This document shows, piece by piece, positions 6,636 to 40,390 of a stretch of 64,000 nt of DNA (position 1 is its first letter; each line of letters begins with the position of its first letter). A model generated the notes under the pieces. It was given only the letters and a program-made list of their open reading frames with translations, made no database searches and was not told the DNA's origin. The DNA is taken from positions 1 to 64,000 of the forward strand of contig JBDRPL010000011.1 in assembly GCA_043827025.1 (NCBI GenBank), read 5' to 3'. Made by a program: the position numbers and the translations under genes. The stretch comes from Candidatus Micrarchaeota archaeon. Its GTDB lineage: Archaea > Micrarchaeota > Micrarchaeia > Anstonellales > Bilamarchaeaceae.

Positions 6636-7436
6636 TTATCTGAATAAGTTGGAAATAAATCCTGCAATTGAATAAATAACTCCTTCGAAAACGGGAGCAA
6701 GTATCAAACCGTTGTTGGTTGATTTGTAATCACCTATCAAATCAGATCTGACAGTGAGCCTGATGTCCTGTTCTTGGTGAATCGCGTTGCTTGCCACTGA
6801 CTCTACATTGATTTTTATGTTATGCCTTTCTTCATCCCTTTCAGTTATGGCGTATGTCAGCATTTCTGTGGATTTAGGCGCTACATATACGTTTCTTTCA
6901 TATTTGAACCTTTCAGTCCCTTCTGTCCATACTCTGAAAACATCGCCGGTAGTTCCTTTGTTATGGATTGTGATGGTGAAGTTCGATTGTTCGCCAGGCC
7001 TTGAGGTTTTTTCCAATGGTGAAACCTCTGCATTCATGACATCATGGATTATCTTGACCTTTGCAGTTATGGTTATGTTGTTTAATTTCTCAGCGTAGTT
7101 CTCATCCTCTATTGTGACTTTTGAGTAGTATTCGCCTTCGCTTGCATCCTTTGCAGCAGTTATCTTGACCTGAAGCGGGAATCCCAGATATTTCGAGTTT
7201 TCATAGCTCCAGCCTGGTGTTATAAACGTGACCTTTGCAAAATCATATCTTCCGCCTTCCTCATAAACGCCTCCTGTTGAGACTTCTGGGTGGAAGTAGA
7301 GTGTAATCGTTTGGCCTGGTCCTATTTCTCCAAGGTCAACAACATCCCCGTTTTGGACGTCCTTCTTTGTAGGTTCAAGCATGAGCACTGAAAACGCCAA
7401 ATTGAAAACTAACAACAGCAGCAATATTTTTTTCAT
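6636..7436 (-). CDS. Exported Ig-like domain protein
   Basis: Signal peptide; FTITIHNKGTTGDVF beta-sandwich pattern; C-terminal anchor. Confidence 0.65.
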   Translation of the reverse strand: MKKILLLLLVFNLAFSVLMLEPTKKDVQNGDVVDLGEIGPGQTITLYFHPEVSTGGVYEEGGRYDFAKVTFITPGWSYENSKYLGFPLQVKITAAKDASEGEYYSKVTIEDENYAEKLNNITITAKVKIIHDVMNAEVSPLEKTSRPGEQSNFTITIHNKGTTGDVFRVWTEGTERFKYERNVYVAPKSTEMLTYAITERDEERHNIKINVESVASNAIHQEQDIRLTVRSDLIGDYKSTNNGLILAPVFEGVIYSIAGFISNLFR

Positions 7437-7478
7437 GAATCTATTTCTACAATAAGGATTAAAAAATCTCGCCTGAAT

Positions 7479-7787
7479 GTGATAGCTATGACTTCTGGTT
7501 CTATTTCAGGCATGACTATTGCCCATATGGATAATCTATTGCAAAACCTGGAAATGCCAGAAGAGGTCAAAAATAGAATACGTTTTGTTTGTAATAAATG
7601 CCTTAAAGCTGGAATAATGTATAGGTCTGGCATTGAATCAGTTAATGGAGCAATCGTTTATTATGTTTGCAAATCCAATAAAGTGCCTATTGATATTGAT
7701 AAGTTGGCAGAACTGTCAAAAACAACAAAAAATAAGATAATTGCAATGGTTGACGGCCTGAAGGGGACTTTCTTGTCTTTCAGATGA
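7479..7787 (+). CDS. Stand-alone TFIIB/TFB cyclin-repeat-like protein
   Basis: AGIMYRSGIESVNGAIVYYVCK...IDIDKLAELSKTTKNKI resembles one TFB cyclin repeat with its HTH. Confidence 0.55.
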   Translation: MIAMTSGSISGMTIAHMDNLLQNLEMPEEVKNRIRFVCNKCLKAGIMYRSGIESVNGAIVYYVCKSNKVPIDIDKLAELSKTTKNKIIAMVDGLKGTFLSFR

Positions 7788-9664: not shown

Positions 9665-10069
9665 ATGGAAGTTGAAAAGGCAAGCGATGTGCAGGACAGG
9701 GTCGAGGATGTGATACGCATTCTGGAATTCAACCACATCATAGATGCAAGAATAATCTGCATGCGCAGCCGCAAAGCAAAGGCTAGAGCTTATGCAAGGA
9801 TTTGGTCATTGCCAATGATCTGGAGAACTGCCCTTGAGATAAGCCCTTTTTATGTAATTGAAGTTTTGTCAGAACATTATGACAAGCTGGATGATGTTGA
9901 AAAGACAAAAACAATTATTCATGAACTAATGCATATTCCTAAGAAGTTTTCTGGTGGTTTGGTTCCGCATGTGAACAAAGGAAGGCATGTCAACCACAAA
10001 GAGGTTGATAAGCTATATCAAACTTATTTGGAAAAAACTCAGTCAAATGTAATCTCGTCCAATCTGTAG
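9665..10069 (+). CDS. Small zincin-like metallopeptidase
   Basis: IIHELMHIP (HExxH) plus a downstream His. Confidence 0.75.
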   Translation: MEVEKASDVQDRVEDVIRILEFNHIIDARIICMRSRKAKARAYARIWSLPMIWRTALEISPFYVIEVLSEHYDKLDDVEKTKTIIHELMHIPKKFSGGLVPHVNKGRHVNHKEVDKLYQTYLEKTQSNVISSNL

Positions 10070-10476
10070 AATCTTGGTCTGTTTTCTTCTTTATTGTATT
10101 GCACAATTACGAGCTGTTTTCTCAGACTTTTTGCAACCCTAAGGTCTTTCAACCCCGCCTCTTTTATGTCTTCCACTACTTTCATGACAAACATGGTTCT
10201 GTCTTCTCCAATGCGGATTCCTTTTTGATAAATTCGAATGTATTCTGAGTCTTTGCTGAACCTTGTGATGTACTTGTGGTCTCTTAGATATTTTATTATT
10301 TCATATTTGTCATCAGCAAGTTCATCTTTTTTCTTGAATTTTGCAAAAAGCTCATCTGCCTTTCCTTCAACCAATCCTTTATCCACAATATATTTGTATT
10401 CGAGAATATGCACTTCTTTTTCAAATCCAAGGTTTTCCAGATCTTTTTCGAGTTTTATGAACATGCTTCCACGCAC
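10039..10476 (-). CDS. tRNA splicing endonuclease-like subunit, probably structural
   Basis: KYEIIKYLRDHKY, RIYQKG and RVAKSLRKQLVI follow the EndA C-terminal pattern; the catalytic His position appears replaced (EDRT). Confidence 0.6.
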   Translation of the reverse strand: MRGSMFIKLEKDLENLGFEKEVHILEYKYIVDKGLVEGKADELFAKFKKKDELADDKYEIIKYLRDHKYITRFSKDSEYIRIYQKGIRIGEDRTMFVMKVVEDIKEAGLKDLRVAKSLRKQLVIVQYNKEENRPRFYRLDEITFD

Positions 10477-15984: not shown

Positions 15985-16770
15985 ATGGCAGTTGTTCAAA
16001 CTCAAAAAAAGATTGTTGATTTGGGAGATGCACCTTATCTAAGGGCCAGAGAAATATCTGTACAAAGAGGCATGAAATTAGCAAGCAATGTCCTTCATGA
16101 TGATTATCTTGTTGGATCAAACAGATATCAAAAAGTAAGACGTGTTTATGCCGCTTGGGCAAGAGAATTATTGGTTTATCCAGAACAAAATGGTCAGTTT
16201 GTCAGGGGCAAAGACGTTGTTGATTCTCATAAAGATAATACAGGAAGAGAATGGGTTTTACCAGCAAGTGATGTTCCAGAACAAGCAATAGGCAGGCAAA
16301 AAGTAGGCTTGTTTGTTGATCCTGAAAATATAGAGGTTACTGATAAAAGAGTAGTGATTCATCCAGCTTCTGTTGTTGTTTTAGATTCATTTATCCAAAC
16401 ATTAGGAAATGGTGGAAAAGTAGATGAAGCAACAAGGATTCCATTAGAAGTTGCCCCTGAACTTTGGGAAAAACTTTCTGATTCAGAGAAGAGATGGCTG
16501 TTCAGAACCGCAGGCGTTGGTGTAAGGCCTCTAGTCCGCTACGTCTACGACATCAACAACAGGCGTGTCGTCGATGCGGGCAACAGGCCCGGCCTTGGTT
16601 ACGGGGTGGCAGCAGAGGCCACCGAAGGTGGCGCGCCGCGTGTAACCAGTACTTCTAAATTGGTAATCTCTGTACAAGAACCTGGAAAATTAACTCTTGT
16701 TTCACCCTCCGGTTCTGACGAACAAATTCAAGCTGCTTTGAGAGTTCTAAGGTCGCAGAATTTACTCTAG
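15985..16770 (+). CDS. DGR target (variable) protein
   Basis: 261 aa; VR encodes RPLVRYVYDINNRRVVDAGNRPGLGYGVA, followed by about 52 further residues. Confidence 0.92.
   Translation: MAVVQTQKKIVDLGDAPYLRAREISVQRGMKLASNVLHDDYLVGSNRYQKVRRVYAAWARELLVYPEQNGQFVRGKDVVDSHKDNTGREWVLPASDVPEQAIGRQKVGLFVDPENIEVTDKRVVIHPASVVVLDSFIQTLGNGGKVDEATRIPLEVAPELWEKLSDSEKRWLFRTAGVGVRPLVRYVYDINNRRVVDAGNRPGLGYGVAAEATEGGAPRVTSTSKLVISVQEPGKLTLVSPSGSDEQIQAALRVLRSQNLL
16526..16610 (+). repeat. DGR variable repeat (VR)
   Basis: Aligns to 17016-17053 plus 17102-17148; all 15 mismatches lie opposite TR adenines. Confidence 0.95.
16618..16632 (+). promoter_or_regulatory. Candidate DGR target-recognition hairpin 3' of VR
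   Basis: GCCACC-GAA-GGTGGC, 7 nt after the VR end, with no equivalent after TR. Confidence 0.8.
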
Positions 16771-16802: not shown

Positions 16803-17168
16803 CCTAGGTGCAAGCCTAGGCCACACACTCGTCTACAGCGCTGGTAGCTTAATAGCAGGCCAGACATGAATGAAAATCTTTAGAGATTTTCAGTATTTCG
16901 AAATCTAAAGATTTCTCAATGAAATTCAACAGCAACAGTGAGTAAGTTACCAACCGAAATCCTGAAGCTGTGGTGTCGGTACTTCGGTACCCTTTGAGTA
17001 GATGGGTTACCATTGGGCCTCTAGTCCGCAACGTCAACGACATCAACAACAGGAGTAATCTCTGGTTGCTTTTTCAAAATAACCAGTATTGCTGTGAAAG
17101 GCGTAACGTCAATGCGAACAACAGGCACGACAATGGTTACGAAATGACCTTACTGGCTTGCATTCTAG
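16803..17168 (+). ncRNA. Predicted structured DGR RNA (leader + TR + spacer)
   Basis: Hairpins at 16803-16820 (GCAA loop), 16871-16892, 16900-16915 and 16978-16991 (cUUCGg); tgcaagcc 16809-16816 is complementary to ggcttgca 17155-17162. Confidence 0.55.
17016..17148 (+). repeat. DGR template repeat (TR) interrupted by a 48-nt hairpin insert (17054-17101)
   Basis: AAY-rich (9 AAC/AAT codons in the aligned parts); two blocks colinear with VR, separated by sequence absent from VR. Confidence 0.95.
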
Positions 17169-17188
17169 TTTAATTTTCTTTTTATTCT

Positions 17189-18293
17189 ATGAACAATATG
17201 AAATCTTACCGGCATTTGTATTCCAAATTGTGTTCATACGAAAATCTTGAGCTTGCGTTCAAGTGTGCAAGGAAACGAAAAACCCTCAAACCATACGTTA
17301 TAGAATTTGGGTCTGATCTTGACAATAATCTAAAACGGCTGAAATGCGAACTAGAAAATTTTACTTACTCGCCCTTACCCCTAACGACTTTTATTGTGCG
17401 CGACCCTAAAACAAGAAAGATAAGTGCATCCCATTTCAGAGACAGGGTCGTACATCATGCATTATACAATGTCATAACTCAGATTTTTGAGAAAGATTTC
17501 ATTCATGATTCTTTTGCAAACCGGAAAGGCAAAGGAACTCATTCAGCAATAAAGCGATTTGAACAGTTTTTAGCACAAACCACACTCAACCATAAAAAAA
17601 CCATAGAGAGAGAGAGAGAGTCAAATTGGTTATGTACTAAAAGCTGACATACGCCATTATTTTGAAACAGTCGATCGCGAAATTTTATTGGGCATATTGA
17701 AACGCAAGTTAAAGGATACACATATTATCTGGCTTATAAGAAAAATATTGGACAACAACAAGACCGCTATGGTCGAAAAGGGTATGCCCATTGGAAATTT
17801 AACCTCTCAATTCTTTGCTAACGTTTATCTGAACGAACTCGACCAGTTTGTAAAGCACAAGCTGAAAGCCAAGTATTATATTCGTTATGTTGATGATTTT
17901 GTGGTTTTACACAGTGACAAGAACATTCTTGAAAAATGGAAGAATGAAATCGATGCATTTTTAAGATCAAATTTGGCTGTAGAACTGCACCCTGAAAAAT
18001 CAAGAATACTTTCATTACGAAGAGGGATAACATTTCTGGGTTTCAGAATCTTTTCGAAATATAAACTTCTCAAGAAAAGCAATGCAAGAAGAATATGGAA
18101 ACGTTTGGAAAGATTTAAGCAGAAATGCAATAAAGGAGAGATCACACGAGCTGAAGTCGTTCAAAGTTTGGAAGGTTGGCTTGCCTATGCTGAATTTGCG
18201 AATTCCTATAAATTCAGGAAAAGAGTTATCGTTAAATTCAATGAATTATTTGATACAAATAAAGAAAATTCAGAGAAGCTGAGCAAAGCTTAA
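17189..18293 (+). CDS. DGR reverse transcriptase, frameshifted at (AG)8 (phase-OFF allele or pseudogene)
   Basis: Part 1: PKTRKISASHFRDRVVHHAL, SFANRKGKGTH. Part 2, other frame from about 17622: GYVLKADIRHYFETVD, GMPIGNLTSQFFAN, YIRYVDDF, FLGFRI. Confidence 0.93.
17605..17620 (+). repeat. (AG)8 microsatellite at the RT frameshift
   Basis: ccat-(ag)8-tcaaatt. Confidence 0.95.
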
Positions 18294-18336
18294 ATACTCC
18301 CTATGCAGTAATTATACTAGAACATGCATGATGTCT

Positions 18337-18415
18337 ATGAAATCAGAGATTTCATGACACAAGAAAAATCTTCGATTTTTCTACGTGTTGTAGGATTGGT
18401 GATTACACCAAATCC
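18337..18415. repeat. Cluster of three short hairpins downstream of RT
   Basis: atgaaatc-aga-gatttcat, agaaaaatc-ttc-gatttttct, ttggtg-atta-caccaa. Confidence 0.7.
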
Positions 18416-18420
18416 AAGTA

Positions 18421-19422
18421 TTGGCGACCGGTCGTGGCCTATTTTTAATATTTCGAGATGGTTTTTTGGGCGTTCTTGAAGATTTTTCATCATGGTTTGT
18501 TTTCGATGTCCTTGGTATGCAAAAGGACAATCCTTTAGCAGAATCCCTGAATTTCTTCATCTATGACACTATCAAGATCTTTATCCTGCTTGCAGTGATG
18601 ATCTTTCTTGTATCTATACTAAGAACATTCATCACTCCTCAGAAGGTGAGAAAGTGGCTCGGAGGCAAAAGAGAGGGTGTGGGCAATGTCATTGCAGCTT
18701 TACTGGGTATCCCAACTCCATTCTGTTCCTGCTCAGCCGTTCCTTTGTTTATAGGATTCGTGGAAGCAGGCGTTCCTCTTGGAGTCACATTCTCATTTCT
18801 AATCGCTGCACCAATGATCAATGAAATTGCAGTGGTTCTTTTATTTGGATTATTCGGCTGGCATATCACTGCACTATATGTTCTTTCAGGTCTTTTCATT
18901 GCAATATTCGGAGGCATACTTATAGGCAGGCTGAAGCTTGAGAAACAAGTAGAACCATTTGTCTACAACGCAAACATAAAGAAGAAATCAACGAACTTCA
19001 AGAACTGGGACAAGAGAATAGAGTTTGCAAAGATACAGACTGCGAACCTGGTAAAAAAAGTAGGGCTTTACATAATCCTTGGTGTGGGAATAGGAGCGCT
19101 TATCCATGGGTTTGTGCCAGTTGGTTTCCTTGCAGACCTTGCAGGTCCGAATAATCCTCTTGCAGTTCCAATTGCAGTATTAATTGGAATTCCATTATAT
19201 TCGAATGCCGCAGGAACAATTCCAATAGTGGAATCATTGATGGCAAAAGGAATGGCAATAGGCACTGCATTAGCACTTATGATGAGCATCACAGCACTTA
19301 GCCTTCCAGAAATGATACTTCTAAGAAGAGTGTTAAAACCAAAGTTGCTGGTAATATTCATTGCAATCATAGCAATATGCATCACGCTGACTGGACTGTT
19401 GTTCAATCTAGTTATAGGATAA
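18421..19422 (+). CDS. ArsP/DUF318-type permease
   Basis: PFCSCSAVP, GVPLGVTFSFLIAAPMINE, ALSLPEMILL; true start possibly TTG 18466. Confidence 0.88.
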   Translation: MATGRGLFLIFRDGFLGVLEDFSSWFVFDVLGMQKDNPLAESLNFFIYDTIKIFILLAVMIFLVSILRTFITPQKVRKWLGGKREGVGNVIAALLGIPTPFCSCSAVPLFIGFVEAGVPLGVTFSFLIAAPMINEIAVVLLFGLFGWHITALYVLSGLFIAIFGGILIGRLKLEKQVEPFVYNANIKKKSTNFKNWDKRIEFAKIQTANLVKKVGLYIILGVGIGALIHGFVPVGFLADLAGPNNPLAVPIAVLIGIPLYSNAAGTIPIVESLMAKGMAIGTALALMMSITALSLPEMILLRRVLKPKLLVIFIAIIAICITLTGLLFNLVIG

Positions 19423-21287: not shown

Positions 21288-21986
21288 ATGCTAAGGTCAT
21301 CAGTTTTATATCTCCTTTCAATTGCGATAATGATGGGGATATTATTCTTAAATCCTCAAATTCCTTCAGATTATGGAGTAGGGATGGTGGTTGTTTCGAT
21401 TTTGGCAATCATTTTACTAAGTGTTTTTGGCCTATTTGCCAAATCCTTAATGAATTACCTGGCCTGCTCGATTTTAATTCAATTGGCATATTTTTTCTTA
21501 GATCTCAGTACTGCAGTTTTAATTGGAAAATCACTATGGTTTGCAGTGATTCAATTCATAAACTTTGTAATTGTTGTGACTCCTTTTCTGCTATTTTTTT
21601 ATTTATTTCATAGAACCCTGAAGAAAAAGTTATTTATTGAATATGCAGGTTTATATAAAAAAAACCAACTGTTAGTTTTAGCATTATGCATTATCGCATT
21701 GTCATCAGGAGGTATGCCCGGATTTAATGTATTTGTAGGAGAATTTATGATTTATTCATCGCTTTTTGCGATCCATCCTTTCCTAACCTATTTTGCAGTT
21801 TTAGCTGGTTTGGTTTGTTTCTTTTTCTATTTTAGGATTTGCTATACTTTGCTCGTGGGTAACTCAAAACGAGTAGTCTATCATTCCTTGCCTATGAAAA
21901 TTGTGCTTGTATTATTTACAACCTTATCTGTTGTTTTAGGGGTAGTGCCTCAAATATTGTTTTATGTCTTGGAGTTTTACATATGA
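21288..21986 (+). CDS. Short antiporter-like (MrpD/NuoN-family) subunit of the group 4 hydrogenase
   Basis: LACSILIQLAY, YAGLYKKN, SSGGMPGFNVFVGEF; only 232 aa. Confidence 0.75.
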   Translation: MLRSSVLYLLSIAIMMGILFLNPQIPSDYGVGMVVVSILAIILLSVFGLFAKSLMNYLACSILIQLAYFFLDLSTAVLIGKSLWFAVIQFINFVIVVTPFLLFFYLFHRTLKKKLFIEYAGLYKKNQLLVLALCIIALSSGGMPGFNVFVGEFMIYSSLFAIHPFLTYFAVLAGLVCFFFYFRICYTLLVGNSKRVVYHSLPMKIVLVLFTTLSVVLGVVPQILFYVLEFYI

Positions 21987-22096
21987 AAAAGGATTTGTAT
22001 TTAGGTGGAGAAAAAGTGGATGAACCTATGGTGCCTCTAGACTTTACAGATTTTCTAATCTCCTTCGTAAGAAGCCTACTAGGTGGAAAAAAATGA
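21983..22096 (+). CDS. 37-aa microprotein in the hydrogenase operon
   Basis: MKKDLYLGGEKVDEPMVPLDFTDFLISFVRSLLGGKK; ATGA overlaps at both ends; below the ORF-track length cutoff. Confidence 0.6.
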   Translation: MKKDLYLGGEKVDEPMVPLDFTDFLISFVRSLLGGKK

Positions 22097-22497
22097 GCAA
22101 TCCTATCAAAAAATCCCCATGGATAAGTATTTTCAATGCTGGAGGGTGCAATGGATGTGTTATTGAATGTGTGGCTTGTACAAATCCAAAATTTGATGTT
22201 ACTAGGTTAGGGATTGAATTAAAAGCAAGTGCAAAACATGCGGATATCTTATTAGTTACTGGAATAGTTAACAAACATAATAAATCACGTTTGATTAATG
22301 TTTATGAGAGTATGGCGGAGCCAAGAAAAGTAATTGCAATTGGAACATGTGCAGTTTCAGGAGGGTTATATCACAATTCCCCGGCATTTGCAGGCCCATT
22401 GGATAAAGTCATTCCAGTTGATATCTATGTTCCGGGTTGTGCTCCCAGGCCTGAAGCAGTTATTGATGCAATAATAAGGGTGTTGGATGATGATTGA
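22093..22497 (+). CDS. Group 4 [NiFe]-hydrogenase small subunit (NuoB-like)
   Basis: GGCNGCVIE, ADILLVTG, GTCAVSGG, VPGCAPRPE. Confidence 0.92.
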   Translation: MSNPIKKSPWISIFNAGGCNGCVIECVACTNPKFDVTRLGIELKASAKHADILLVTGIVNKHNKSRLINVYESMAEPRKVIAIGTCAVSGGLYHNSPAFAGPLDKVIPVDIYVPGCAPRPEAVIDAIIRVLDDD

Positions 22498-22783
22498 TCC
22501 TATGAGTAAAATGACAGATATGCGTGCAGACAGGTTAGTTAGCATTACTTGTCTGAAGGATGGGGAGGATTTCAAGTTGATCTACCATTTTTCTTTGAAT
22601 GATGATCCTGATTTAATTGCCATAACCATAGATGTTTCAAAAGGAGAGAAGGTAAAAACAATAATCCCAAGATGGAACAATGCTTTATTTTTTGAAACTG
22701 AAGTAACTGAATTCTACGGGCTCAACTTTGAGGGGAATCCTGCTTGTGGGACGAGACTATTTTTACAGGAGGTTGAAAAATAA
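22487..22783 (+). CDS. Group 4 hydrogenase NuoC-like subunit
   Basis: LIYHF, NALFFETEVTEFYGLNFEGNP. Confidence 0.85.
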   Translation: MMIDPMSKMTDMRADRLVSITCLKDGEDFKLIYHFSLNDDPDLIAITIDVSKGEKVKTIIPRWNNALFFETEVTEFYGLNFEGNPACGTRLFLQEVEK

Positions 22784-23937
22784 TGCATGAATGTATTTTT
22801 CCTATCGGACCCCAGCATCCTGCTTTGAAAGAACCAATATACCTAAAACTGCATGTTGAAGGGACAACAGTTAAGCAAGCTGAGTTTAACTTGGGCTATG
22901 CCCATAGGGGAGTCGAAAGAATCTCTGAAGGTAAACTGTTGGATCCTGAATTGCACACTGTTCAAAGAACATGTGGCATATGTTCCCATTGCCATTCTTT
23001 AGCGTTTCTAAGGGCAGTTGAACCTGTTGCAGGCCTGACAATTCCTATGAAGGTAAAACTTCAAAGGGTCATGGTTGCAGAGCTGGAGAGGATCCATTCC
23101 CATTTATTGTGGGCAGGAGTTATGATGCATGAAATGGGATTAGAGACCCTATTCATGTATTTTTGGAGAGAAAGAGAGAATATCCTGGATGTCTTTGATG
23201 AATTGACTGGTGGGAGAGTTCACCATTCTATCAATTTAGTTGGAACAATGAAAAGAAGTTTTAACAAAGAAAATTTAGTGTTTGCCCAGGAAAAACTCAA
23301 TTCTATTATTGACAGGGTCAAAGAGCATCGTGAGGTATTGGAGAATCATGACGTGATTGTTAGTAGATCTAAGGGGATCGGCAAAATCTCAAAAAAGATG
23401 GCAGTTGATTTGGGGTTGGTGGGCCCAGTTGCAAGGGCCTCTGGTGTTGATTATGATGTGAGGGTAAATTCCCCATATGAAGCTTACACGGAAATCAAAG
23501 TAAAACCTGTTTTAAGAGTTGAAACAGATGCCTGGGCCAGGAGTCTGGCAAGGGCTGATGAAATTCTGGAATCAATCAAAATCATAGACAAGGCAATTGA
23601 TATGATTGATCCAAATGAGGAACTCCCTAAGAAACCCTCATTTTTTGCAAAAGAAGGGGTTGGTTTAGGCAGGGTTGAAGCACCAAGGGGAGAGAATTTT
23701 CATTATGTTAAAATTGAGAATAACAGGATATCCAGGATAAAGCTTAGAACGCCTACTTTAGCGAATCTTTGTGTTTATCCAAAGATTTTAGAGGATGTGG
23801 ACATAACAGACGTTCCGGTAATTGTGGCAAGTCTGGACCCGTGCATCTCTTGTATGGAAAGGGTTACGGTAATTAAGGATGGAAAGAAAGAAATTTGGAC
23901 AACTCATGAATTATCAGAGGCTAAAAAACATGATTGA
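22783..23937 (+). CDS. Group 4 [NiFe]-hydrogenase large subunit
   Basis: GPQHP, RTCGICSHCH (L1), DPCISCMER (L2) followed by a C-terminal extension. Confidence 0.93.
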   Translation: MHECIFPIGPQHPALKEPIYLKLHVEGTTVKQAEFNLGYAHRGVERISEGKLLDPELHTVQRTCGICSHCHSLAFLRAVEPVAGLTIPMKVKLQRVMVAELERIHSHLLWAGVMMHEMGLETLFMYFWRERENILDVFDELTGGRVHHSINLVGTMKRSFNKENLVFAQEKLNSIIDRVKEHREVLENHDVIVSRSKGIGKISKKMAVDLGLVGPVARASGVDYDVRVNSPYEAYTEIKVKPVLRVETDAWARSLARADEILESIKIIDKAIDMIDPNEELPKKPSFFAKEGVGLGRVEAPRGENFHYVKIENNRISRIKLRTPTLANLCVYPKILEDVDITDVPVIVASLDPCISCMERVTVIKDGKKEIWTTHELSEAKKHD

Positions 23938-24772
23938 GTTAGCTATAACCTTTATATTAATTTTCGTGGCCCTTCTTTTCGAAGGTGTTAGAAGAAAAAT
24001 AATTGCAAGGATGCAAAACAGGGTTGGACCCCCATTGCTTCAGCCATTCTATGATCTTCTAAAACTATTGACTAAAAAAGGAGTTCATGAACAAAATTTA
24101 ATCTTTAGTTTGGTCCCCTCTATCACTTTGGCCACTTCTTTAGTTATCCTGTTATTTGTTTCAGCATTATTTGTAAGCCAGTCATTTTTAGGATTTGACT
24201 ATAATTTTCTTTTAATTGGATATTTGTTTATACTTCAAGATACTTTCCTGATCTTTGGAGCAGTATCCAGTAGATCTCCATTTGCAGTTCATTCAAGTAT
24301 GAGGGAAATGTTAATCATGTTGGGTTATGAATTAGCATTCTTAATTCTTTTATCTTTATTTTTTATCAAGGCTTCAGTCTTTAATTTTGTCAGTTACCCA
24401 TTAGATTTGGCAATCTTACAACTTCCATTGGCCTCGATCCTGCTATTCTATGTCGGTTATGTGATCCTAAAGATAACTCCCTATGACGTAGTCAATGCAG
24501 ATGCTGAAATCTCGGGTGGATTCTTAACTGAATATTATGGAAAAGATTTAGCAATCTTGGAGTTGGCAGAATTTATCAAGAATTTCTGTTTCTACATAAT
24601 CTTTGCATTTTTAGTATTTGGAAAAAGTTATTTCTTGCCTGCATCTTTAGGCATATTAGTACTTTACGAACTTATGAGGGCCACGACTCCCAGGTACTCC
24701 ACATTTAGAGCAGCGAAGACCTTTGCACTTATTTTGCTTTTAGCATTTGTTGATCTATTCCTGGTGATTTAA
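23930..24772 (+). CDS. Group 4 hydrogenase NuoH-like membrane subunit
   Basis: RKIIARMQNRVGPPLLQPFYDLLKL, PYD..ADAEISGGFLTEY; start set at ATG 23930. Confidence 0.9.
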   Translation: MIELAITFILIFVALLFEGVRRKIIARMQNRVGPPLLQPFYDLLKLLTKKGVHEQNLIFSLVPSITLATSLVILLFVSALFVSQSFLGFDYNFLLIGYLFILQDTFLIFGAVSSRSPFAVHSSMREMLIMLGYELAFLILLSLFFIKASVFNFVSYPLDLAILQLPLASILLFYVGYVILKITPYDVVNADAEISGGFLTEYYGKDLAILELAEFIKNFCFYIIFAFLVFGKSYFLPASLGILVLYELMRATTPRYSTFRAAKTFALILLLAFVDLFLVI

Positions 24773-25101
24773 TGACATTATCCTTTGTTAAGTCTGTGTT
24801 GAAAAATTTTGTTTCCAAACCATTTACGAAAGATTATCCCAAGAAAACTCCTGAAATCTCAAAAAATTATCGTGGTAAGTTGTATTTGGACAGGGCAAAC
24901 TGCATAAAATGTAGGTTGTGCGTTATTAACTGCCCTACAAATGCTCTAACATTCAATGAAGAAAAAAAGAGGGTAGAATTTGATAGGGGTTTGTGTATTC
25001 TTTGTGGTATGTGCCATCATATATGTCCTAAGAATTGTTTTACTTTTACTAATCAACACAAAGTTTCAGAAAAGAAAAAGAAAAATTTTATTCAGAAGTA
25101 G
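24772..25101 (+). CDS. Group 4 hydrogenase NuoI-like 2[4Fe-4S] subunit
   Basis: CIKCRLCVINCP and CILCGMCHHICP. Confidence 0.92.
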   Translation: MTLSFVKSVLKNFVSKPFTKDYPKKTPEISKNYRGKLYLDRANCIKCRLCVINCPTNALTFNEEKKRVEFDRGLCILCGMCHHICPKNCFTFTNQHKVSEKKKKNFIQK

Positions 25102-25148
25102 TTTATTTGAGTTAAAATGTTGCTTGGTTAATAAAATATTGGTGTGCT

Positions 25149-25547
25149 ATGAAAAAAATCCTTGTTTTCGGCAATGAACTGGTGAAAAGCGATTCGCTTG
25201 CGTTAATGGTTGCAAGGGAACTCGGTAAAAGTGGCAAACTCAAAGACATAGAGTTCAAGGAATTGGATGCAGTGGAAGAGATACAGAACGAGGGAAAGGA
25301 CCTTGTCATTTTGGATGTGGTTCAGGGAATAAAGAAATTGACAATCATTACTGACTTCGACCAGTTGAAAAGCAGCCAAATCTATACTCTGCATGATTTT
25401 GATCTTGGGATGAACCTCAAACTCCTCAAGAAGTTGGGTCACATAGACAAAATGAAAATAATCGGAATCCCGATGGGTTGGAAAAAAGAGAAAGCAGTAA
25501 AGGAAGTAAGATCTGCAATCAAACAACTGTGGTCAATTGTACTATAG
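25149..25547 (+). CDS. Second hydrogenase maturation protease-like protein
   Basis: VFGNELVKSD, VILD, TLHDF; converges on the group 3b large-subunit gene. Confidence 0.7.
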   Translation: MKKILVFGNELVKSDSLALMVARELGKSGKLKDIEFKELDAVEEIQNEGKDLVILDVVQGIKKLTIITDFDQLKSSQIYTLHDFDLGMNLKLLKKLGHIDKMKIIGIPMGWKKEKAVKEVRSAIKQLWSIVL

Positions 25548-26840
25548 CCAATTCAATTTCAGGAAATGGGTGGCACAGCTCATGCATGGATCGTAAGCTC
25601 TAACCAGTTTTTCAACTTCGTATTTTATCTTTTCCTTTGGCATGCCTTCATCTAGTTTCTGCTGGACCATGCTGCCAATGTTCTTTTCCATGTTTACCTG
25701 GTTTTGTGCAGTGGGTATGACAAGCTCTGCATTCTTTACCTTACCTTCGTCATCTACGCGCAGATGGTAATAAAGAGTGCCACGGGGCGCTTCAATGACT
25801 CCAACACCCTCGCGTTTCCATCCTAATTTCAATTCAGGCCTTGGCTCTGCCTTTAGCTCAAGCCTTTCTATTATTTCAATAGAGCGATCGATGCAATTCA
25901 CTATTTCTATCGCCTGGGCAAGATTATTGTGGAAGATGTTGTTGGAAGGAAAGACCTTCAGGGATTCACTGCATGATTTTTTGGTGTCAGGATGTATGCT
26001 TGAGCCATTGAGATTTACTCGTGCAAGCGCTCCGACAAGATAGGGCCTTCCTTTGTATTTGAAGCCTGCTGCCTGCGAATATGGGATGACTCTTTCGCTA
26101 AGGTAATTGATGTACACCTCTTCAGCTATGCAATAGTGGTCTGTGGAGCATATTCCGTCTCCAAGATAAGCGAAGTCCTTGTTCTTTATAGCTATGAATT
26201 CCGCATTGTTTTCTATGAATTCGAAATCGCACTTGTGGAATATGTCAACGAATTCAAGCGCCCCATTCCGTATCTTCTGCAATTCAGGAACCATTGCCTT
26301 CAGTTCTTCCTTAGTCGGCGTTTTGATGAATCCTCCGGGTACCGGAAAGGGGGCATGCACTGGTTTCCCGCCAACAAGGGTGTCAAGTTTGTTGCCAACT
26401 GATTTTATGTCAAATGCTTCATGCAACAATTCATGTTCTTTTCCGTCATCTGCAAATTCAAGCACAGAATCCTTTCCAAATATGTCCGGAAGGCAGAAAA
26501 GAAAGAGGTGCATTGCATGGTCCCTGATATTCAGCCCATAAAGCATGAGGTTCCTCAAATCCATTGTCTGTTGCGAGGGAACGTGCTCATAAATTTCTTC
26601 AACAGTTTCAATGCAAGCGGTAAGGTGCGCAGTGCTGCAGGTCCCACATATCCTTGAAACCAGCCGATGAGTCATCAGAGAGGGTTTTCCACGCACTGCA
26701 CGCGTGAAAAATCGCTTGTTCTCGGTTATCTTGAGTTCAACGTTCTTGACTTTGTGGTCTTTAACCTTTATGTCAAGGTCTGCATGGCCTTCTATTTTGC
26801 TCATGTTCTCAAGGCTAATGTCAAAATCCAGACTGTGCAT
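25542..26840 (-). CDS. Group 3b-type [NiFe]-hydrogenase large (alpha) subunit
   Basis: KIEGH, SRICGTCSTAH, EAPRGTLYYH, RAYDPCMSCATH plus a short tail. Confidence 0.9.
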   Translation of the reverse strand: MHSLDFDISLENMSKIEGHADLDIKVKDHKVKNVELKITENKRFFTRAVRGKPSLMTHRLVSRICGTCSTAHLTACIETVEEIYEHVPSQQTMDLRNLMLYGLNIRDHAMHLFLFCLPDIFGKDSVLEFADDGKEHELLHEAFDIKSVGNKLDTLVGGKPVHAPFPVPGGFIKTPTKEELKAMVPELQKIRNGALEFVDIFHKCDFEFIENNAEFIAIKNKDFAYLGDGICSTDHYCIAEEVYINYLSERVIPYSQAAGFKYKGRPYLVGALARVNLNGSSIHPDTKKSCSESLKVFPSNNIFHNNLAQAIEIVNCIDRSIEIIERLELKAEPRPELKLGWKREGVGVIEAPRGTLYYHLRVDDEGKVKNAELVIPTAQNQVNMEKNIGSMVQQKLDEGMPKEKIKYEVEKLVRAYDPCMSCATHFLKLNWL

Positions 26841-39232: not shown

Positions 39233-40390
39233 ATGAGATTTACGTTTTATCATATGGCTAAGGACCCTGCTTCCAAGTCACAGTTAAGGCCTTCGGTCAA
39301 CAGGCCAAGGGCAGTTAGGCCTAATCTTTTGATGAAGCATTATCTCGGACCTGCCAAACATAAGATGAGGGACGTACTTGGTGTTTTCTCATCCCATTAT
39401 CCACATTTGGACCTTAGGCCAATAGTTGATGCTTATCGTTTTGCAAGATATTTACATGATGGCCAAAAAAGGCTAACCGGCGATCCATATATTGTACATC
39501 CTGTCGATGTTGCATACCGCATTGCAAGGGCTGGTGCAGGCAGAGCTCTTATTGCCTCAGGCCTTTTGCATGATGTGATAGAGGATTGTGGGGTTACCTA
39601 TTTTGATCTGGCTAATCTTTTTGGCAGGCGTGTGGCAGAACTTGTTTGCAAAGTCACCAAACCCAAATACGTAAGCAGCACCTGGGTTTTTGCTGATGAG
39701 CCTAGATTTTACTTAAGAAAGGACAAGTATACTGATGAGTTATATTCCCAGAGGGCAGACGTCTATTTTTCAAATCTTCTGCAAGATTTCAATGCAATGC
39801 TGCTCAAAGTCATGGACAGCCTCTCGAACCTTAATGAAATGGAAACAATGCCTGCATATAAGAGAGACCGGAATGTAAGGACCATGATTGAGCAAATATT
39901 ATGGATGGTCCCAAGGATCTTAGGTCCCGAGGCTTACTATGAAACTGTCTTTGAATTAAAGAGATGGGGTTTTGAAATCCCGGAACATTTGCTTCCAAAA
40001 GATCCGGAAAGCTCTATTGTGGTTTTGCCTTCAAGAGCAGATGTTGGAATCGAATTGTTTGCTGCAATGCCCCCTCCGAATGCAGATTATCTTAGTGTTT
40101 ATCTCCCAGGCAGGCGCAACATTATTTTTGAAATTGGTTTTCCATCAAGTATTGTAGGTGAAAGGCCTTCAGATAAGCTTATGCGTTTGGTTGCAAGAAT
40201 ATTTGAAAGAAGTGTTGTGACACAGACGGTGAGCCTTGTATCTCCCGAGGTAGCTGCGCACGAAACTTTGCTTGGGATACGGCTTGCAAGCCCTGCTGAA
40301 GCAGAAACAATAATCAATTGTGCTACAGAGATTTATGGCGAAGTCATGGCCCCTCACTCCCATTATACGCTAGGTAAGCAAAATAGGTAA
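39233..40390 (+). CDS. SpoT/Mesh1-like HD-domain hydrolase with unknown C-terminal domain
   Basis: HDGQKRLTGDPYIVHP, LLHDVIED, LKVMDSLSN. Confidence 0.85.
   Translation: MRFTFYHMAKDPASKSQLRPSVNRPRAVRPNLLMKHYLGPAKHKMRDVLGVFSSHYPHLDLRPIVDAYRFARYLHDGQKRLTGDPYIVHPVDVAYRIARAGAGRALIASGLLHDVIEDCGVTYFDLANLFGRRVAELVCKVTKPKYVSSTWVFADEPRFYLRKDKYTDELYSQRADVYFSNLLQDFNAMLLKVMDSLSNLNEMETMPAYKRDRNVRTMIEQILWMVPRILGPEAYYETVFELKRWGFEIPEHLLPKDPESSIVVLPSRADVGIELFAAMPPPNADYLSVYLPGRRNIIFEIGFPSSIVGERPSDKLMRLVARIFERSVVTQTVSLVSPEVAAHETLLGIRLASPAEAETIINCATEIYGEVMAPHSHYTLGKQNR

Follow-up and report, generated by a model that had tools for sequence, protein, structure and literature searches.

An (AG)8 tract in the RT gene of a Micrarchaeota DGR as a candidate phase-variable switch

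Introduction

Simple-sequence contingency loci, such as the poly-G/C loci of Campylobacter and Neisseria and the type III methyltransferase phasevarions, carry a repeat within coding sequence that sets the reading frame, occur with both in-frame and out-of-frame lengths, and are built from G/C or dinucleotide units. To our knowledge, repeat-driven phase variation has been little studied in archaea. PMC3711429 describes how slippage of these repeats at replication turns genes on and off, and names poly-C/G and longer units for phase variation.

The closest described relatives of the element analysed here are the DGRs of Nanoarchaeota (PMC4372165; 5IOO) and of Bordetella phage BPP-1, which have a C-type-lectin target, adenine-specific differences between template repeat (TR) and variable repeat (VR), an RT with (I/L)GxxxSQ and YxDD motifs, and a hairpin with a 3-nt loop after the VR. 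For the nanoarchaeal elements, this trinucleotide-loop hairpin is named in a figure legend of PMC4372165, the main text of which makes no mention of frameshift, slippage, purine tract, phase variation or stop codon. In Bacteroides, DGR activity is held low in many hosts and bursts between quiet periods are expected (bioRxiv 10.1101/2024.11.15.621889); the main text of that work states that DGR signals and regulatory mechanisms "await discovery" and mentions neither frameshift nor slippage.

Here, we analysed a DGR in a 64,000-nt stretch of DNA from a Candidatus Micrarchaeota archaeon (hereafter the window), in which the RT frame is interrupted at an (AG)8 tract. The locus resembles simple-sequence contingency loci in all traits listed above. 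Unlike in those loci, the switched gene would be a mutator, so that a stochastic switch would gate a second, targeted mutagenesis; moreover, the host is an uncultured DPANN archaeon, the tract lies mid-gene in an enzyme loop and is known here from sequence alone, and the unit type changes between DPANN lineages while the site is kept. With the DGRs of Nanoarchaeota and BPP-1 the element shares the C-type-lectin target (here predicted), the adenine-specific differences, the RT motifs and the hairpin, but it differs from them in that no Avd was found, the RT is interrupted at the repeat, the TR has a 48-nt insert and about 55 codons follow the VR. As in Bacteroides, activity would be mostly low, whereas control there is by transcript level. 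In the literature searched, including the main texts of PMC5758913, PMC4372165, PMC8144416, PMC11661182, PMC8867640, PMC8632793, PMC3711429 and bioRxiv 2024.11.15.621889, we found no description of repeat-gated DGR RTs. By that literature, repeat-length control of a DGR RT, here in the OFF state, would be a new variation on simple-sequence contingency loci. Paul et al. (2017; Nat Microbiol 2:17045), who treated the DGRs of CPR and DPANN, reportedly may mention purine tracts in RT genes, and priority is uncertain.

Results

The (AG)8 tract and the reading frames of the RT gene

Table 1 Features of the DGR in the window
Feature	Position	Strand	Remarks
Target gene	15985..16770	+	261 aa; predicted C-type-lectin fold, residues about 3-216; short C-terminal extension
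Variable repeat (VR)	16526..16603	+	Inside target gene; from TR/VR comparison
GC-rich hairpin, 6 bp, GAA loop	16618..16632	+	Just 3' of VR; DNA fold; candidate target-recognition hairpin
Rfam RT-16 RNA motif	16803..17015	+	62.3 bits (gathering score 50), E 9.8e-9; directly upstream of TR
Template repeat (TR)	17016..17141	+	AAC-rich; segments 17016-17056 and 17099-17141 flank an insert
48-nt hairpin insert in TR	17051..17098	+	Missing from VR; relaxed bulge-helix-bulge (tRNA-type intron) shape fits
5' part of DGR RT gene	17189..17647	+	152 aa as assembled; ends 8 codons past tract
(AG)8 tract	17605..17620	+	Variable loop of RT, directly before GYVLKADI motif; out-of-frame length
3' part of RT gene, +1 frame	17607..18293	+	KAD, IGNLTSQ and YVDD motifs; stop-free; Pfam RVT_1, E 2.2e-17

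The tract (Table 1) consists of exactly eight AG units, flanked by CCAT on the 5' side and TCAA on the 3' side. Translation from the ATG at 17189 passes through it and ends after 152 aa in ...KKTIERERESNWLCTKS-stop, and the +1 frame has a TAG at 17604-17606, after which it is open (RERESQIGYVLKADIRHYF...GMPIGNLTSQ...RYVDD...) up to 18293. GxxxSQ is a mark of DGR RTs, and the DGR-type motifs KADI, IGNLTSQ and YVDD are present, divided between two frames as assembled; the 5' part matches TIGR04416 at positions 26-120 with a score below the cut-off. Neither half contains a stop. Had the frame shifted before the tract, say in the A7 run (17594-17600), the TAG at 17604-17606 would be read in frame; a break there was therefore ruled out, and the shift must lie in the tract or just behind it. 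Counted from the same ATG, 3, 6, 9 and 12 AG units give an RT of 364, 366, 368 and 370 aa, respectively, and all other unit numbers within 3-13 lead to a stop at 147-154 aa. These translations confirm the original prediction that (AG)8 splits the RT frame, that the TAG places the shift in or just after the tract, and that both halves are stop-free with intact motifs; the RT of ~367 aa expected from (AG)6 or (AG)9 was correct, give or take one residue. The window RT has no ATG, GTG or TTG in the stretch from the upstream TAG to the KAD aspartate, for which reason a separate C-terminal RT chain by restart was rejected for the window.

Under an order-2 Markov model, 0.0003 (AG)8 or (CT)8 runs are expected by chance in the 1.33-Mb genome. 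The tract is the longest AG/CT run of the genome; the next in length, an (AG)7, occupies the corresponding site in another copy of the RT, on contig C7. Elsewhere, the genome has two AT runs of 16 and 18 nt, namely (AT)8 at C25:17069-17084 and (AT)9 at G000:C14:4480-4497; like an A17 run (C20:39124-39140), they lie near ORF ends and are possible further contingency sites.

The element around the RT gene

TR and VR differ only at TR adenines (3/3 and 9/9, together 12/12, over 41 and 43 nt, the 48-nt TR insert set aside). The target protein has no Pfam or NCBIfam match; it was modelled with a pLDDT of 90.7 from a 64-sequence alignment (38 for the single-sequence fold). The model is structurally most similar to 5IOO, a variable protein of a nanoarchaeal DGR (Z 7.8, rmsd 3.7, 152 residues aligned), which ties with further C-type lectins, and the top rows were nearly all C-type lectin folds (5VF4, TaqVP, Z 7.2), a Z under 8 being middling. 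By its RT, its TR/VR pair and the predicted fold of its target, the element is a member of the DGR family. With a predicted C-type-lectin-fold target, adenine-only TR/VR differences and an RT-16 RNA, the DGR surrounding the tract looks intact.

Searches for Avd (NF033474 and PF22296) found neither family in the window's own genome, which is 91.6% complete. Among the 61 RT-bearing genomes of the phylum, PF22296 was over the cut-off in 0/61 and weak in two, and the control genomes likewise gave no positive over the cut-off. Some DGRs lack avd (PMC8632793), and the DGRs of these 61 genomes may run without it or with an unrecognised partner. With no Avd found, it is the TR/VR patterns by themselves that speak for activity of these RTs. 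A promoter and terminator scan, which uses a bacterial consensus, remained at chance level.

Further pieces of DGR-related sequence were seen in the genome: at about 40232-40326 of G000:C9 a deleted target-gene remnant, its first 66 nt joined to sequence just past the VR, and at about 7130-7750 of G000:C8 an intact-looking target paralog (36% identity), whose VR-equivalent region has no TR match. Downstream in the window, at 21288-26840, a cluster of ORFs resembles, by eye, subunits of membrane-bound and soluble NiFe hydrogenases and maturation proteases.

The insert in the template repeat

Owing to the flanking AGG(A/C)GT, the boundaries of the TR hairpin insert are defined only to within 6 nt. 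The insert, which the VR lacks, occurs in five genomes, that of the window and those of L001 (4412-4483, +), L007 (2625-2696, -), L008 (2654-2728, -) and L067 (973-1047, -), with paired changes in the inner stem among relatives. A bulge-helix-bulge has two 3-nt bulges around a 4-bp helix and is cut after the second bulge base. Register A of this shape, which has three standard pairs and one A-G and was chosen to fit the junction, would leave exactly the VR junction, and 94% of its cells are paired in the five sequences, with the central pairs invariant. Register B, with four standard pairs, would excise 43 nt and does not match the VR junction. On its own, the insert hairpin folds only modestly better than shuffled sequences (z -1.74).

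The tRNA splicing endonuclease family is present in the genome, with its main match on contig C6. At 10039-10476 (-) of the window, a 145-aa ORF weakly matches the catalytic family of tRNA intron endonucleases (E 2.9e-4, under the cut-off). As an alternative to an intron, the insert could stem from template jumping of the RT between the flanking AGG words. It does not look like decay, since the TR and VR halves still match in OFF loci that carry the insert.

The tract in other assemblies and in the second RT copy

Five public runs were available, all of them as contigs and none of them from RNA, X1 being the run with 95% of the words. One X1 contig (record 7) spans 17592-18458 with zero differences over 867 nt, including (AG)8 and both flanks; contigs drop rare alleles. 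This second assembly makes a slip of the assembler less likely; X1 is possibly the source sample, in which case it is not independent of library errors. As for the assembly error that (AG)9 in all reads would reveal, the single X1 contig that spans the tract reads (AG)8. Sequencing depth in X1 was 5.7 for the tract contig and 9.4 for the contig with the 5' part of the RT, compared with 15-19 for the flanking contigs and 18 for the C7-type copy. The two RT contigs cover 17227-18458, a stretch that starts beyond the VR. Given this lower depth, the window's RT arrangement may belong to a minority strain or to part of the population, contig depth being a poor measure. Also in X1, another sequence joins the window at 18429; this joining sequence was not found in the sequence of the genome. 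Runs X2 and X3 contain only a small share, and the tract of the window strain was not recovered from them; the RNA run X4 yielded only two short pieces of other RTs.

The second RT copy of the genome (L072, G000:C7:47943-48755) lies at a contig end and is out of frame with (AG)7 at the same site. It has lost about 80 codons including YxDD. Against a background of 77% identity to the window RT, it matches that copy perfectly over 93 nt (17164-17256) and again over 31 nt that run into the tract (17588-17618), which suggests recent recombination or gene conversion between the two.

Repeats at the same site in related RT genes

The RT 3' half, a query that detects split and whole genes alike, had matches at 75 places in 63 of the phylum's 401 genomes, a patchy distribution. 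After six short fragments had been left out, 69 places were taken in, and further loci were added from other searches. The resulting 87 loci comprised 77 with both RT halves (10 had no usable half), which after removal of nine duplicates left 68 distinct genes: 66 from the phylum genome search, one Micrarchaeota duplicate pair counted once, and one metagenome contig. A scan of metagenomes for the pattern returned four stretches, of which one was a chance match (L073), two were near-copies of known loci and one was a new OFF gene (L075). The only other genome of the genus (74% complete) has no match.

With thresholds of at least seven G/C, eight A/T or five dinucleotide units, which were set after the linkers had been seen, 50 of the 68 genes have a repeat in the linker between the RT halves (poly-G in 31, AG in 12, poly-C in six, AC in one). 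There were no repeats in the 64,482 nt of these genes outside the linker, which accounts for 4,771 nt. Tract lengths among relatives range from G7 to G22 and from (AG)5 to (AG)12. Whereas all 18 repeat-free linkers are in frame (three belong to distant RTs of 33-44% identity), 45 of the 50 linkers with a repeat are out of frame (Fisher p 2.6e-12; kin are not independent and the p value is a guide only), 26 needing +1 and 19 needing -1 (balance p 0.37). In-frame lengths make up 5/50, fewer than the one third that lengths drawn at random would give (p 1.3e-4, again a guide only). In 45/45 OFF genes, no stop interrupts the 5' frame up to and across the repeat, nor the 3' frame from the repeat end onwards, so that the length of the repeat alone decides the state of the linker. 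The repeat-free in-frame linkers are 18 to 87 nt long, indicating that the loop tolerates length. The comparison of tract lengths among homologous RTs that the original prediction had proposed as a check thus gave repeats at the site in 50 of 68 genes, in four unit types and out of frame in both directions in 45 of 50.

No in-frame allele was found among the eight AG-tract genes of the window's own family (L001, L005, L007, L009, L035, L067, L072 and L075), which are all OFF. The near-identical sequences L007/L074 (99.6%) and L067/L076 (99.9%) do not differ in tract length, and each pair may be one sample. Among the OFF genes, further lesions are a clear internal stop in 2/45 (L014 and L030), a stop at the very end of L042, and the large deletion in the C7 copy. 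Of the five in-frame tract genes, one (L064) is interrupted by a linker stop and another (L051) is missing the RYxDD motif. A TR/VR pair, defined by at least 70% of differences at adenine, was found for 33 of 45 OFF loci and 14 of 23 ON loci; seven of the 12 OFF loci missed had less than 500 nt of upstream DNA. MutS and NucS families had no match in the window's genome (91.6% complete).

Sister pairs and selection

A quick tree of 57 of the 68 genes, in which 22 of 54 inner branches are open, requires 18 changes among the four classes. L052 with (AG)9 OFF and L054 with (AG)10 ON, both from one genome, form a sister pair of opposite state, and L023 (G10, ON) is sister to L028 (G8, OFF), both with 100% SH-aLRT. 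In L058 and L029 the run is G11 and the genes are OFF, whereas L024 is in frame at that place with the interrupted run G5-T-G4; some in-frame linkers classed as repeat-free (L024, L020 and L015) look like interrupted runs, as if locked ON. ON and OFF lengths thus both exist among relatives, with shifts in both directions, the comparisons being between species or paralogs.

In the four pairs with a dS under 1.6, two of them OFF/OFF, dN/dS was 0.055-0.106, and the window RT compared with L001 gave a dN of 0.114 and a dS of 1.73 (dN/dS about 0.07). The tract is also shared by OFF/OFF pairs whose dS is saturating, and in these dN/dS stays near 0.1. Judged by these substitution rates, both RT halves are under purifying selection; dN/dS between species averages long times and is silent on this copy today. 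Relaxed selection on the RT, named beforehand as an outcome that would count against a switch, is at odds with a dN/dS of about 0.1.

Repeats in a second archaeal phylum

Of 151 genomes in the phylum to which the Pacearchaeota locus L003 belongs, 36 gave a match. Among the best 30 loci of this phylum, 29 were usable; 28 were repeat-free and in frame, and one had a G10 and was out of frame. In this second-phylum control, frameshifts therefore follow repeats and not the assembly method. A second repeat site was seen there in the loop immediately preceding GMPxGN; L097, L100 and L109 are in frame at this site and L003 and L117 out of frame. The same device thus appears at two sites of the RT gene. 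L088 has a G9 just upstream of the RT match. In L088, L093, L094, L096, L106 and L111, open frames of 550-620 codons surround the RT match and are possibly N-terminal fusions.

Discussion

On balance, we consider it probable that the tract is a simple-sequence contingency switch, acting by slipped-strand phase variation, in a DPANN (Micrarchaeota-type) DGR RT that usually rests OFF. A candidate phase-variable switch had been proposed from the window, as an inference; repeats at the site in 50 of 68 genes, the excess of OFF lengths in both directions and purifying selection lend support to that proposal. The tract sits in a length-tolerant loop, for which reason the in-frame lengths (AG)6 and (AG)9 give the full enzyme of 366-368 aa; other lengths give a fragment of 147-154 aa without any catalytic aspartate. 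Slipped-strand mispairing at replication, presumably in the DNA rather than the RNA and within the population, would occasionally add or remove one unit, and with no match to MutS or NucS, slips would be more likely to persist. If ON alleles give active enzyme, the rare ON cell would make RT and rewrite the adenines of the VR, and a later slip would turn the gene OFF again with the new target variant fixed. OFF would be the usual resting state, with ON short-lived or selected against, the probable reason being that ongoing mutagenesis harms an already functional target.

Among the alternatives, slippage in transcription rather than replication is the one that fares best. Here, the repeat would act as a dimmer: RNA polymerase slips on a repeat that remains out of frame in the DNA, and each cell makes a little full-length RT. 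This predicts nearly the same genome pattern as slippage in DNA, accounting equally for the OFF excess, for both directions, for purifying selection and for fresh-looking TR/VR pairs, and it also explains why DNA length variants were not seen in X1 or in the near-identical pairs. Sites of transcriptional slippage are often homopolymers of eight or more, according to a passage of PMC3711429. Against it, DNA lengths vary widely between relatives (G7-G22, (AG)5-(AG)12), and in a genome with no MutS or NucS match such tracts should slip in DNA anyway, so that both mechanisms can coexist. The repeats are, moreover, runs of G, C, AG and AC and not the A/T runs that are typical of transcriptional slippage. 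We therefore regard it as unlikely, if a serious contender.

More doubtful still is a one-way decay, in which chance repeats in a tolerant loop are the commonest first kill of a dispensable RT and the window copy is a young pseudogene. The patchiness of DGRs in the phylum (63/401 genomes), the DGR debris in the genome (the C7 RT copy with its large deletion and the deleted target remnant on C9) and the lack of an ON allele among the eight AG genes of the family would all fit. Decay is difficult to reconcile, however, with the finding that 50 of 68 genes have a long repeat at a single site, in four unit types, and that no other part of the gene has any, with 45/45 OFF linkers that could be mended by repeat length alone, with a clear extra internal stop in only two of the 45, and with OFF/OFF pairs at saturating dS that share the tract at a dN/dS near 0.1.

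Programmed ribosomal frameshifting, or an RT of two chains made by translation restart, is very improbable. Both would explain a break at a conserved place, and 30 of the 45 OFF genes have some ATG, GTG or TTG in the 3' frame before the KAD aspartate. A programmed frameshift is contradicted by directions that are about equal (26 vs 19) and by a motif that is not conserved (G, C, AG or AC), and two chains by the window gene, which has no start codon there, and by an ATG in only 8/45 genes and at no fixed place. Least credible of all is an assembly or sequencing artefact, with true alleles in frame and repeats miscounted: these are MAG sequences, repeats are error-prone, L012 contains Ns and its linker is doubled, and the RT contigs have low depth in X1 (5.7-9.4 vs 15-19 in the flanks), which is perhaps the source sample, but the separate X1 assembly likewise reads (AG)8 between the two flanks and is identical over 867 nt, errors on true ON alleles would leave more than one third in frame (observed, 10%), 16 of 17 other genome runs of at least seven G/C or of (AG)5, albeit shorter ones, lie in frames open for at least 35 codons on both sides, and the position of the repeats at one site would be left unexplained.

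Returning to slipped-strand switching, we tentatively extend it, at a confidence a little short of even, to a heritable mutator switch in Micrarchaeota and related ultrasmall prokaryotes, in which unstable repeats of varied units would have been placed repeatedly in two or more tolerant loops of the RT, selection would keep most cells OFF, and targeted evolution would proceed in rare bursts in a subpopulation. In the window's lineage, the template RNA would also require splicing by the tRNA endonuclease of the host, and the RT would act without Avd. About two thirds of the RT genes examined (45/68) appear as two ORFs, and surveys that need a whole RT would therefore miss them or call them pseudogenes. 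For the limits that cells set on DGR mutagenesis, which the 2024 Bacteroides preprint treats as an open matter, a repeat-length switch in the RT offers a concrete and countable mechanism; if true, it would be phase variation of a mutator, and in archaea.
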